DNA from: Candidatus Altimarinota bacterium
GTDB lineage: Bacteria > Patescibacteriota > Gracilibacteria > CAIRYL01 > GCA-016699755
NCBI GenBank assembly: GCA_963664295.1
Contig: OY760935.1
Coordinates: 96,001 to 160,000, forward strand
Length of the DNA stretch: 64,000 nt
Direction of reading: 5' to 3'
The notes beneath the pieces were generated by a model that was not told where the DNA came from, ran no database searches, and saw nothing but the letters and a program-made list of their open reading frames with translations. Below are positions 993 through 40,264 of this stretch, piece by piece (the stretch's first letter is position 1; the number at the start of each line of letters is the position of its first letter). The position numbers were made by a program, and so were the translations under genes.

Positions 993-1465
993 TTTGAGAT
1001 GGTGGAATTGGTAGACGCGAAAAAGCTTAAGCGGGCCAAGTGGCTAAGCAAAAACCACAGAAAGAAAAAATAGCGAATAAAATCCTAGATTAGAATTAAA
1101 ATAAATGTACGGGCGGGTGGTGGAATTGGTAGACGCGAAAAAGCTTAAGCGGGCCAAGTGGCTAAGCAAAAACCACAGAAAGAAAAAATAGCGAATAAAA
1201 TCCTAGATTAGAATTAAAATAAATGTACGGGCGGGTGGCGGAATTGGTAGACGCGAAAAAGCTTAAGCGGGCCAAGTGGCTAAGTAAAAACCACAGAAAG
1301 AAAAAATCGTGAATAAAATCCTAGATTAGAATTAAAATAAATGTACGGGCGGGTGGCGGAATTGGTAGACGCGAAAAAGCTTAAGCGGGCCAAGTGGCTA
1401 AGTAAAAACCACAGAAAGAAAAAATCGTGAATAAAAATCCCAGTTAAAAATAAAGTTAACAATAC
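993..1465 (+). repeat. Tandem array of four 118-119 bp units, each beginning with the 5' end of tRNA-Leu
   Basis: Units start at about 993, 1111, 1229 and 1347, each with (GGGCGGG)TGGYGGAATTGGTAGACGCG (acceptor 5' strand plus D arm), then a degenerate anticodon/variable region and an A-rich tail. The intact tRNA starts at 1466. Confidence 0.95.
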
Positions 1466-1554
1466 GGGCGGGTGGCGGAATTGGTAGACGCGCAAGGTTG
1501 AGGGCCTTGTGGAAAATTATTTCCGTGAGGGTTCAAGTCCCTCCTCGCCCACCA
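1466..1554 (+). tRNA. tRNA-Leu(GAG)
   Basis: Acceptor stem GGGCGGG/CTCGCCC plus ACCA; D loop GGAATTGGTAGAC; anticodon arm CAAGG-TTGAGGG-CCTTG; long variable arm; T arm GAGGG-TTCAAGT-CCCTC. Confidence 0.97.
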
Positions 1555-1556
1555 TT

Positions 1557-1910
1557 TTTATCGGGGGCTTGCGTCGCCCCCCTCAGTGGCAAAGCCACTG
1601 AGCCTCCCCCCTCTCGCTCACTTCATTCGCCTTTGGCGAATTATGTTCGCTATTTTTTTAGCAAAAATTATGACCCAGAGTGGAGCAAGCTAGAGTAAAT
1701 ATGGCACGATTTATCGGGGGCTTGCGTCGCCCCCCTCAGTGGCAAAGCCACTGAGCCTCCCCCCTCTCGCTCACTTCATTCGCCTTTGGCGAATTATGTT
1801 CGCTATTTTTTTAGCAAAAATTATGACCCAGAGTGGAGCAAGCTAGAGTAAATATGGCACGATTTATCGGGGGCTTGCGTCGCCCCCCTCAGTGGCAAAG
1901 CCACTGAGCC
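1557..1910 (+). repeat. About 2.3 tandem copies of a 153-bp palindrome-rich unit directly after tRNA-Leu
   Basis: TCGGGGGCTTGCGTCGCCCCCC starts at 1561, 1714 and 1867. Internal hairpins: CTCAGTGGC-AAA-GCCACTGAG and TTCGCC-TTT-GGCGAA. Confidence 0.95.
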
Positions 1911-1953
1911 TTCTTCTTGCTTCGCTACATTTTACTGTTGGCGTTAAATCAAC

Positions 1954-38583: not shown

Positions 38584-38988
38584 TTATTTGAATAATTTTT
38601 TCGTTTGTGTTGAAAAATCTGCAAAGTCAAAAGTGACAACAGCTATCCAAAAAAGCGCTAAAGATAGCCTAAAAACAAAAACATTACCGATCATTAAAAC
38701 AAGAAGTATATCGAGTATAATAAACAACATTCCAACCACAAGCATTGAGAAAAAAGTAGTCACATGACCCCACCACAAAGATTGCTTGTCTATTATGTTT
38801 TTATAACTATAAATAAAATTCGATGTGATTGGTGCTATGACAATTAAGCCCACAAACAATAAAAGAGTATCCAGTCTTTCAGTTGGCATTTTTGACACCT
38901 CTTTTGCAGTAATAAGGTAAAACAAAATCAGTAAAACATGTATCAAAATATTTTTTATTACTATATTTTTAATGCTTATTTTTTCCAT
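38584..38988 (-). CDS. Hypothetical four-TM membrane protein
   Basis: 134 aa with four hydrophobic segments. Confidence 0.7.
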   Translation of the reverse strand: MEKISIKNIVIKNILIHVLLILFYLITAKEVSKMPTERLDTLLLFVGLIVIAPITSNFIYSYKNIIDKQSLWWGHVTTFFSMLVVGMLFIILDILLVLMIGNVFVFRLSLALFWIAVVTFDFADFSTQTKKLFK

Positions 38989-39052
38989 TTATTGCAAAAA
39001 CTTGATATTAAAACTATATCAGGGGTTTCGAGAGTGGACAAGGGGGGGATAA

Positions 39053-39334
39053 TTATTGATATGTTTTAATAAACTCATTTATTTTATATGATTCTATATT
39101 GGCTTTTTTTGCAACTTTATATTGCTGGTTGTCTTCAGTAAGAAGTATGCCTTTTTCTTGATGAGCTAAACAGACATAAATATAATCAGGTGGCTTTAGG
39201 TAGTCAATTTTGCTTTTTAAGCTATTTATCCAAAAAGCTTCATCTATTGAAAAAAATTTAGGCTCTAGGGCATTTTGTTTGGTTATATTTTGATTTAGGT
39301 TAAATATATTATTTACAAATAATTTCCCCTCCAC
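39053..39334 (-). pseudogene. 5'-truncated PIN-domain (VapC-like) gene remnant
   Basis: C-terminal PIN motif D.IYVCLA..EKGILLTED.Q...AK is present, but the N-terminal xxDT/SxV motif is missing. The 5' end runs into the tRNA-Lys repeat array. Confidence 0.6.
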
Positions 39335-40189
39335 TCCGCGCCCTCGTTATTCACTAGGTCGCTCCGCTCTGGGTCGTAATTCTCGCTAAGCACTTGGCGG
39401 GTGAGGTGGGGATCGAGTTTTTTGTTTCGGGTTTTGCTTCGCAAAAGCCCTCCACTGCAGACCGCACCCACGGGCTAATTAGATGGGCTCCCAACTCATA
39501 ATTAAAAACAATTTAAATACAACAAATAGCGAACGCTAGTGAGCGAGAGGGGTGAATTGGGCGGGCGTGTACCGCCCAAGAGGGGCGACGCTAGCCCCTT
39601 ATAATTGGCGGGTGAGGTGGGGATCGAGTTTTTTGTTTCGGGTTTTGCTTCGCAAAAGCCCTCCACTGCAGACCGCACCCACGGGCTAATTAGATGGCCG
39701 TGTGCTCGCTCCCAACTCAAAAAATATTTTCCAGCCAGCTTTGCTGACTAAAAAATATTTGGCGGGTGAGGTGGGGATCGAACCCACGGCCAATGGCTTA
39801 AGAGGCCACTGCTCTTAATTTATACCCAGCACAGCCCTAACGGGCTGTCCCGAGCTGGATATAATCCAGCTCTTACCTACGCCTCGCATCTGCTTGGTCG
39901 GTACATGCCCGCCCAAGCAGATGCTCGCGATCGCACCTTACGGTGCTCGGTAGAGCAGTGTCCTTAAGTTATCAGCCGAAGACTTAAATCCATTCACATT
40001 AAAAACCATTCCTGCTTTGCAGGACTGCTTTTTAATGGCGGGTGAGGTGGGGATCGAGTCTTTTGTTTCGGGTTTTGCTTCGCAAAAGCCCTCCACTGCA
40101 GACCGCACCCACGGGCTAATTAGATGGCCGTGTGCTCGCTCCCAACTCAAAAAATATTTTCCAGCCAGCTTTGCTGACTAAAAAATATT
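39330..40189 (-). repeat. Complex array downstream of tRNA-Lys with four extra copies of the tRNA 3' end
   Basis: TGGCGGGTGAGGTGGGGATCGA at 39395, 39606, 39760 and 40036 (gene at 40190). A 154-bp unit is repeated, and 39606-39815 is duplicated at 40036-40245. Confidence 0.95.
39760..39815 (-). pseudogene. 5'-truncated tRNA-Lys(CTT) copy
   Basis: Identical to the 3' 56 nt of the tRNA at 40190 (anticodon arm, T arm, CCA) but lacking the 5' 19 nt. Confidence 0.85.
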
Positions 40190-40264
40190 TGGCGGGTGAG
40201 GTGGGGATCGAACCCACGGCCAATGGCTTAAGAGGCCACTGCTCTACCACTGAGCTACTCACCC
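40190..40264 (-). tRNA. tRNA-Lys(CTT)
   Basis: Reverse complement GGGTGAGTAGCTCAGTGGTAGAGCAGTGGCCTCTTAAGCCATTGGCCGTGGGTTCGATCCCCACCTCACCCGCCA; anticodon CTT. Confidence 0.98.

Follow-up and report, generated by a model that had tools for sequence, protein, structure and literature searches.

Repeat Arrays at the tRNA Genes of the Window

The window analyzed here is a 64-kb stretch (C1:96001–160000) of the genome of a Candidatus Altimarinota bacterium, designated G000, which consists of one contig of 1,215,430 bp with 33.5% GC and is 100% complete by markers. ARAGORN finds only three tRNA genes in the window, for Leu, Ala and Lys, and each is accompanied by an array of short repeats. The repeat units are gene-less, tRNA-resident cassettes of two kinds: units behind tRNA genes with the layout of the tRNA-linked repeats (TLRs) of Escherichia coli, and crippled 5′ tRNA halves in front of tRNA genes. 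The features are as follows, in window coordinates.

993–1465, plus strand: four tandem units of 118, 118, 118 and 119 bp, each joining up to nt 27 of the tRNA-Leu 5′ end to a degenerate stretch of anticodon arm and a copy of the AT-rich leader
1466–1554, plus strand: intact tRNA-Leu(GAG), called by ARAGORN
1557–1911, plus strand: 153-bp hairpin module trailing the CCA (M3), present 2.3 times, without a tRNA piece
23286–23362, minus strand: intact tRNA-Ala(TGC), called by ARAGORN
23123–23285, minus strand: Ala TLR-layout unit 1, 163 bp, ending in the exact 21-nt tRNA 3′ end (23123–23143)
22960–23122, minus strand: Ala TLR-layout unit 2, identical to unit 1, with the 21-nt 3′ end at 22960–22980 (163-bp spacing)
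40190–40264, minus strand: intact tRNA-Lys(CTT), called by ARAGORN
40036–40189, minus strand: Lys TLR-layout unit, 154 bp, with a triloop hairpin, an inverted T-arm copy (40126–40148), module M2 and the exact 22-nt 3′ end
39760–40035, minus strand: Lys 276-bp unit, several GC-rich hairpins followed by a 56-nt tRNA-Lys copy (nt 20–75)
39606–39759, minus strand: second copy of the Lys 154-bp unit, with one difference from the first
39395–39605, minus strand: Lys 211-bp unit, with an M3-variant module, a shortened inverted arm, M2 and the 22-nt 3′ end
39320–39394, minus strand: module M4, trailing the CCA, also found after the last end copy at Gly(TCC), Phe, two Gln genes and Glu(CTC)

The pieces of tRNA-Leu are exact over nt 12–27 in the first two upstream units (1004–1019 and 1122–1137) and cover nt 1–27 in the other two (1229–1255 and 1347–1373). 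Ala unit 1 runs from a trailer hairpin through an inverted copy of the T arm and variable loop (core 23215–23232), a spacer, a degenerate direct T-arm strand and a hairpin module to the duplicated 3′ end. The extra 3′ ends of tRNA-Lys measure 22, 56, 22 and 22 nt (at 40036, 39760, 39606 and 39395). Some modules recur elsewhere: M2 of the Lys(CTT) 154-bp unit also occurs at tRNA-Lys(TTT), and the 153-bp M3 module has a near-identical single copy behind tRNA-Met (844 kb in G000) and a variant behind tRNA-Thr(GGT).

An initial annotation, made from the letters alone, had reported an array at each of the three tRNA genes, with four 5′-fragment units and a 153-bp tandem at Leu, two extra 3′ ends 163 bp apart at Ala and four extra 3′ ends at Lys; ARAGORN and repeat comparison located all of these repeats. 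Its statement that the arrays are built from pieces of the tRNAs holds for the Leu 5′, Ala and Lys units; in the 153-bp unit, which is a CCA-trailing module, no piece of at least 11 nt of any tRNA was found. The units had been described as full of GC-rich hairpins; the Lys and 153-bp units have 51–52% GC, and the Leu and Ala units only 39–40%.

Distribution and Architecture across the Genome

The 41 ARAGORN calls in G000 were reduced to 37 tRNAs by removal of the tmRNA and of three intron-bearing calls judged false or doubtful, one of which lies inside the 16S rRNA and another of which overlaps the Val array. A census of exact 15-nt matches to either tRNA end at a distance of up to 1 kb detected end copies at 19 of the 37 tRNAs, compared with 4 of 835 ends of open reading frames (ORFs) and 85 of 5000 random segments. 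The 41 copies comprise upstream 5′ copies at seven tRNAs and downstream 3′ copies at 15. All 15 tRNAs with 3′ copies have these downstream and on the tRNA strand, which is the position of TLRs, and none has them upstream; copies of opposite polarity or exactly inverted copies were not found by this census at any of the 37 tRNAs. Gly(GCC) carries an additional 15-nt 5′ copy outside the census offset. Units are 80–320 bp long and lack an integrase, and perfect head-to-tail copies occur at Ala, Val, His, Glu and Phe; many further tandem repeats are present elsewhere in G000. In four relatives, where the census covered the loci from the 30 best tRNA matches of 41, 40, 36 and 44, end copies were found at 0 of 32 (a single-contig genome of the same family), 3 of 31, 0 of 29 and 1 of 31 tRNAs. 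G000 is an outlier in tRNA end-copy load relative to these genomes; the arrays are genome-wide and tRNA-restricted, as had been proposed, in G000 itself, and the same flanks are sparse or absent in its relatives.

Units of the 3′ type share one plan, to which the Ala and Lys units of the window conform. Behind the CCA stands a hairpin, then a degenerate inverted copy of the tRNA's own T arm. A short spacer separates this copy from the 5′ strand of a direct T arm whose loop is replaced by a hairpin module, and the unit closes with the exact tRNA 3′ end. This end is 17–22 nt long in most units and 35, 37 and 56 nt in three, and a locus has one to four units. The junction thus defined lies in the T loop for the 3′ type, and in the D-loop/anticodon-stem region for the 5′ type. 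Loops of the C-(G/A)NA-G type are specially stable in DNA, and triloop hairpins of this kind occur in 12 of 37 tRNA trailers of G000 versus 2 of 838 ORF trailers, at nt 17–19 after the CCA in nine trailers and at nt 36 in three. An inverted T-arm copy (p<0.02 versus shuffles) is present in 13 of 37 trailers, including those of the window Ala and Lys genes, where about one would be expected by chance, and in 0 of 33, 0 of 31, 0 of 29 and 1 of 33 trailers of the relatives. The G000 copies rank their own tRNA first to third; the Ile case is probably spurious. By eye, the trailer hairpins of Gly, Met, Arg, Ser, Lys, Ala and Asn in G000 have stems of differing sequence but retain a symmetric internal loop of three by three nucleotides.

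Four module families, M1 to M4, are shared between loci, in agreement with the initial annotation, and across the whole of G000 their motifs are confined to tRNA genes (M1, eight copies; M2, 11/11; M3, 4/4; M4, 6/6) and are not spread over other intergenic regions. The M1 core is 93–100% identical over seven copies at Gly, three Ser genes, Arg and Gln. M1 is restricted to tRNAs with GGTTCGAATCC (7 of 13 versus 0 of 24; Fisher p 1.7e-4, with copies that are not independent). The M3 variant trails the CCA of the tmRNA, of the Ser(GGA) end copy and of one window Lys copy; at the tmRNA gene (C1 747.9–748.0 kb) it follows directly and without a duplicated end. A BLAST search for M1 in 301 genomes of the class found G000 alone above noise, the exact M1 motif gave no match in metagenomes, and in 20 G000 loci, the three window loci not among them, tRNA alone passes the Rfam gathering score.

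TLRs are said to have been first described in E. coli in 1978, by Egan and Landy, and later by Rudd in 1999. The available part of PMC8144298 counts 22 units at ten loci (tyrT/tyrV rttR, lys/val, proK, argQZYV and rrA/B/F), with one to five units per locus and 18–19 bp identical to the 3′ end of the upstream gene, and gives them no known function. A covariance model built from six E. coli TLR units alone (R1), which includes 11 T-arm letters, yields four matches across all of G000, all of them M1 units behind tRNAs on the sense strand, with E 0.003–0.08, values that are rough and come from copies that are not independent. In a targeted search seven of nine R1 matches were M1. The M1 units score 18–23 bits, and the E. 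coli rrB/rrF units, which lie outside the model, score 22.9. Sequence-only profiles gave no match from E. coli to G000 or in reverse, and pairwise likeness to individual E. coli TLRs ranges from p 0.003 (proK) to >0.4 (lysQ). The relation of M1 to the E. coli TLR core is weak and becomes visible only when structure is modeled. The window Ala, Lys and Leu units have no R1 match, and a second model built with units from G000 and from another genome, G027 (R2), gives a weak E of 4.5 for both Ala units and no match for Lys; the window's own units resemble TLRs by layout only. Four of eight E. coli trailers have a significant inverted arm, and four short lys units lack one. The second E. coli proK TLR is broken right after its T-arm strand by a repeat that is presumably REP-like, an insertion that suggests this slot can accept other hairpin elements.

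Further genomes add few cases. TLR-layout units are present in G027 (Tyr, Gln) and G143 (Ser). A scan of 150 genomes of the class with R1, under filters that missed even G000, led to ten loci that were read, of which two are TLR-layout units behind tRNAs, one is TLR-like without a called tRNA, and the rest are neither. Over 40 genomes R2 has strong matches in G000 and G027 alone, whose units built the model, and five weak ones (E 0.005–0.07), all without a tRNA, so that single matches in this range can be due to chance. A TLR-end pattern was matched in 6 of 401 genomes of the phylum, about as many as by a backwards control, with G027 the only real case. No enzyme-bearing TLR was found among 125 viral loci with TLR-end motifs, the scans returning two enterobacterial TLRs and ordinary tRNA clusters.

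Two neighboring genes in the window may be mentioned. A ComEC-family gene (40307–41782) lies head to head with tRNA-Lys(CTT); DNA uptake would provide single-stranded DNA. Between the Leu and Ala loci, a 4734-aa ORF at 7424–21628 contains internal 189-bp and 183-bp repeats.

A tRNA-Nested GIY-YIG Gene and a Possible Origin of the Arrays

The 5′-type units, composed of tRNA 5′ pieces, a degenerate continuation and a leader copy, occur at the window Leu gene and at three Ser genes, Met, Tyr, Gly and Pro. Two of the Pro units, 321 bp long and identical, each contain the same 82-aa GIY-YIG gene behind a CCGCC..GGCGG hairpin standing in place of the anticodon arm; a degenerate gene-less unit lies in front of them. 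The protein is identified by membership of the GIY-YIG domain, and its nearest solved structures are UPF0213 proteins. A similar cassette is found at the tRNA-Pro gene of another genome, G010. Homologs from 80 metagenome loci represent 68 distinct genes, 59 of which lie no more than 400 bp from a tRNA, all on the same strand, and 48 of which are accompanied by a partial tRNA copy of at least 13 nt; several have gene-less units of the 5′ and 3′ types next to them, in which a hairpin plugs the T loop or the anticodon. In G000 the CCGCC..GGCGG hairpin also fills the final slot of the M1 unit at Arg(GCG), and it is present in TLR-layout units of two other genomes, G010 and G021. In a tree of 49 rows and few columns, the tRNA-linked GIY-YIG group is separate from a hairpin-flanked GIY-YIG gene at 622 kb in G000 (support 92/93 and 100/97). 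At the tRNA-Asn gene of G039:C12, a GIY-YIG cassette lies in front and a gene-less 110-bp array behind, with a similar anticodon-loop hairpin plug in both. A second GIY-YIG group is located directly behind tRNA genes at four loci, with other hairpins and without a duplicated end. The tRNA-Pro cassette, the inverted T-arm copies and the likeness to TLRs go beyond what the initial annotation had seen.

That annotation had proposed one trans-acting activity for all arrays, a tyrosine recombinase, an HUH/RAYT nuclease or a template-switching polymerase, with no integrase in cis. The last point was borne out, as no integrase lies between any tRNA and its end copies. G000 has no match to the Y1 transposase/RAYT family (PF01797) and no reverse transcriptase was found in it; a tyrosine recombinase is present, the sole one being XerC/D-like, but it lies at 1.158 Mb, far from any array. 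The proposed enzymes thus mostly fail. DUF559, considered as another candidate enzyme, is not represented in G000. A single activity behind all arrays is not borne out by their layout, which differs between 5′ and 3′ units, and among the products suggested (decoy attachment sites, CCA-ended small RNAs and a miniature tRNA-targeting element) the miniature element comes closest.

We tentatively favor, at somewhat less than even confidence, an origin of the arrays in cuts by a small GIY-YIG nuclease in or beside tRNA genes, followed by template-switch repair, gene conversion and tandem amplification. This origin is favored because the other candidate enzymes are absent or remote and the nucleases SegB and SsnA offer precedents (PMC2330249 and PMC11893778, in the parts available), because the GIY-YIG cassette is nested in the tRNA-Pro units of G000, with a similar one in G010, and its homologs are mostly tRNA-adjacent, and because the CCGCC..GGCGG hairpin is shared with TLR-layout units, M1 is restricted to GGTTCGAATCC tRNAs and triloops are enriched in tRNA trailers. 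The candidate nuclease would cut tRNA-gene DNA, and repair could then copy from hairpin-folded single-stranded DNA. Fold-back at a triloop hairpin combined with template switching may produce the direct–inverted–direct layout. A hairpin plug in the T-loop motif would make the copy resistant to cutting, and gene conversion could move modules between tRNA genes sharing the motif. Selection would retain one intact tRNA, and unequal recombination between direct repeats could amplify the units in tandem.

Several observations count against a nuclease origin, and the enzyme is linked less firmly to units of the TLR type than to those of the 5′ type. The inverted arm is present in 0 of 40 trailers between a tRNA and a GIY-YIG gene and in 1 of 28 behind tRNAs downstream of GIY-YIG genes, and R2 matches 1 of 68 GIY-YIG loci (E 0.025). 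E. coli K-12 has TLRs, and its only two GIY-YIG matches lie off the TLR loci examined. The CCGCC hairpin is missing from most G000 units, including all of those in the window, and of its 20 strand-wise matches 14 lie off tRNAs. G010 has several tRNA-adjacent GIY-YIG genes, yet one TLR-layout unit among 31 tRNAs. The uniform polarity of the end copies is unspecific, since every duplication that has one of its ends within a tRNA gene would show it. A bolder proposal, which we regard as doubtful, is that TLRs are cross-phylum, non-autonomous selfish cassettes that plug the T loop, move via folded single-stranded DNA and are driven in trans by a widespread, tRNA-nested clade of GIY-YIG nucleases of about 80 aa; G000 would then represent an outbreak over half of its tRNA genes, with enzyme and substrates together.

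Other origins can be set against the nuclease-started repair. In CTXphi attP and integron attC, a folded single strand serves as a duplex att-like site. By analogy, the units could be minimal TLR-layout cassettes integrated at the T loop by a trans-acting tyrosine recombinase, either the host XerC/D-like protein or visiting phage integrases, with the inverted arm folding a single-stranded circle into an att-like duplex. Most 3′ copies do begin in the T loop (17–22-nt matches), a standard integrase crossover site, and 1836 of the 3919 islands in the available part of the Islander study lie at the T-stem region (PMC4383910). Circularized units, in most printed cases, pair the 3′ end with the inverted arm (z −1.9 to −5.8 as DNA), but circular folds are no lower in energy than linear ones. 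An intact moving cassette would not leave inverted arms that follow the tRNA of their own locus next to modules common to several loci; 5′ fragments are found in 159 of those islands (3760 have 3′ fragments) as opposed to 7–8 of 37 G000 tRNAs; and an integrase-bearing version is absent from the 125 viral loci, so we consider this explanation unlikely. To a similar degree it is unlikely that selection maintains the units as RNA elements, in the form of tRNA trailers or of small RNAs ending in CCA, which would bind proteins or tune processing and would be kept similar by ordinary gene conversion without a dedicated enzyme. The E. coli rrA/B/F TLRs are transcribed, processed and bound by Hfq and CsrA according to the accessible portion of PMC8144298; M1 folds better as RNA (z −3.2 to −4.0) than as DNA (z −1.4 to −2.3); and both the layout and the core show conservation from E. 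coli to G000. In computed precursor folds, which leave termination and tertiary structure out of account, the inverted arm pairs with the real tRNA in 11 of 11 G000 units (probability 0.65–0.98), and the downstream 3′ copy is the partner of the tRNA 5′ strand. However, the spread is patchy, with no end copies at the 32 tRNAs of the same-family genome, the perfect tandem expansions and a strain with a different unit order look like turnover, and a terminator-like hairpin precedes the inverted arm.

Neutral scars, left by replication slippage, by fold-back accidents at hairpin-rich tRNA genes or by decayed island remnants in a lineage with weak repeat deletion, are an improbable and already weakened explanation. 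The perfect head-to-tail copies at five loci fit slippage or unequal crossing over, and G000 is rich in other tandem repeats, but chance scars would not be expected to share a fixed triloop position after the CCA, identical modules behind unrelated tRNAs and the tmRNA and nowhere else, or a core like that of E. coli TLRs. At the Ser locus the shared modules speak against an ordinary scar, and at His amplification of the slippage type still holds. An assembly artefact is highly unlikely. Sequencing reads were compared with the Leu locus only, using runs X1 and X3, which may be the source sample. No unitig spans the whole Leu array; unitig depth, on the other hand, rises with copy number, from 9–12 in the flanks to 16–19 (X1) and 23–25 (X3) in two-copy unitigs, or about 1.4–2.3 times flank depth, and to 25 and 44 in the module unitig. 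Moreover, fixed substitutions distinguish the units, and a run from another study contains a Leu 5′ unit with two differences, after which more unit sequence stands at the place taken by the tRNA in G000. Recurrence of the layout in E. coli and further genomes also speaks against an artefact.

Relation to Known Systems

G000 differs from REP/RAYT systems in lacking a Y1 transposase. With genomic islands the arrays share an intact tRNA, a displaced end fragment and T-loop junctions. Islands, however, need an integrase and have size peaks at 13.6 and 39.9 kb in the available part of PMC4383910, whereas the far shorter G000 units have no integrase and contain an inverted tRNA copy.

SegB of phage T4 has GGTTCRANTCC as its recognition motif within tRNA genes and cleaves directly behind CCAR, as given in the available part of PMC2330249. 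It is likewise encoded by a GIY-YIG nuclease gene among tRNA genes, and its targets, the T-loop motif and the CCA end, are the places where the G000 modules attach. SegB differs in being a double-strand homing enzyme of a phage, situated between tRNA genes, while the G000 protein, seen as a gene sequence, is an 82-aa single domain in partial tRNA copies.

SsnA cuts single-stranded DNA beside its hairpin (PMC11893778, accessible part). Shared with the Ssn/NTS/SRM system is a single-domain GIY-YIG protein tied to hairpin repeats, and a 95-aa GIY-YIG gene of G000 (622841–622554) is flanked by such hairpins. These belong to a tRNA-independent repeat family starting with GTCAT, which is present in the window at 47096–47787 and forms about 30 clusters between 143 and 762 kb of G000, about half of the chromosome. 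The family has up to about 77 overlapping matches per cluster and 134 pattern matches versus 32–53 in shuffled sequence, one of them near a tRNA. Judged from sequence, the family and the 95-aa gene look like an Ssn/SRM system, yet the published SRM pattern has a single match in G000, at neither a tRNA nor a GIY-YIG gene. The tRNA arrays differ from Ssn in that tRNA is mentioned 0 times in the main text of PMC11893778 and in that the tRNA-Pro protein falls into the separate tRNA-linked group of a tree without an SsnA row.

The closest parallel is the TLR. By eye, and without a statistic, the E. coli rrF/rrB TLR has hairpins like that of the GIY-YIG cassette and like one G000 M3-variant hairpin. 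Our literature search, from which subscription journals were mostly missing, located no paper that describes TLRs beyond enterobacteria or small tRNA-nested GIY-YIG cassettes and no account of TLR origin, and the inverted arm may already be published. G000 belongs to another phylum and has four module families, of which M1 alone matches the E. coli core; the window Ala, Lys and Leu units remain below significance on the core models, and G000 has 5′-half arrays and a nested GIY-YIG gene in addition. The kind of element is known but unexplained, and the observation is real; new here are the genome-wide load, the model-based link between M1 and E. coli TLRs, the T-loop bias of M1 and the co-resident candidate enzyme. 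G000 has a candidate enzyme nested in units of this kind; spread of the units as its gene-less passengers, which is likely at best, would give TLRs a testable origin, and a minimal nuclease specific for tRNA-gene DNA would be a useful tool. In both organisms several loci carry extra units (one to four each in G000) that lie behind the gene on the same strand and end in the 3′ end of the upstream gene, over 18–19 bp in E. coli and mostly 17–22 in G000. The inverted T arm, the split direct T arm and the triloop hairpin module can also be read from the sequences of the K-12 loci tyrT, tyrV, proK and lysQ. If a genome of Patescibacteria type shares this layout and has a related core, the elements would be either deeply conserved or transferred over a long range, which points to a recognized structure as opposed to an oddity of E. 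coli.

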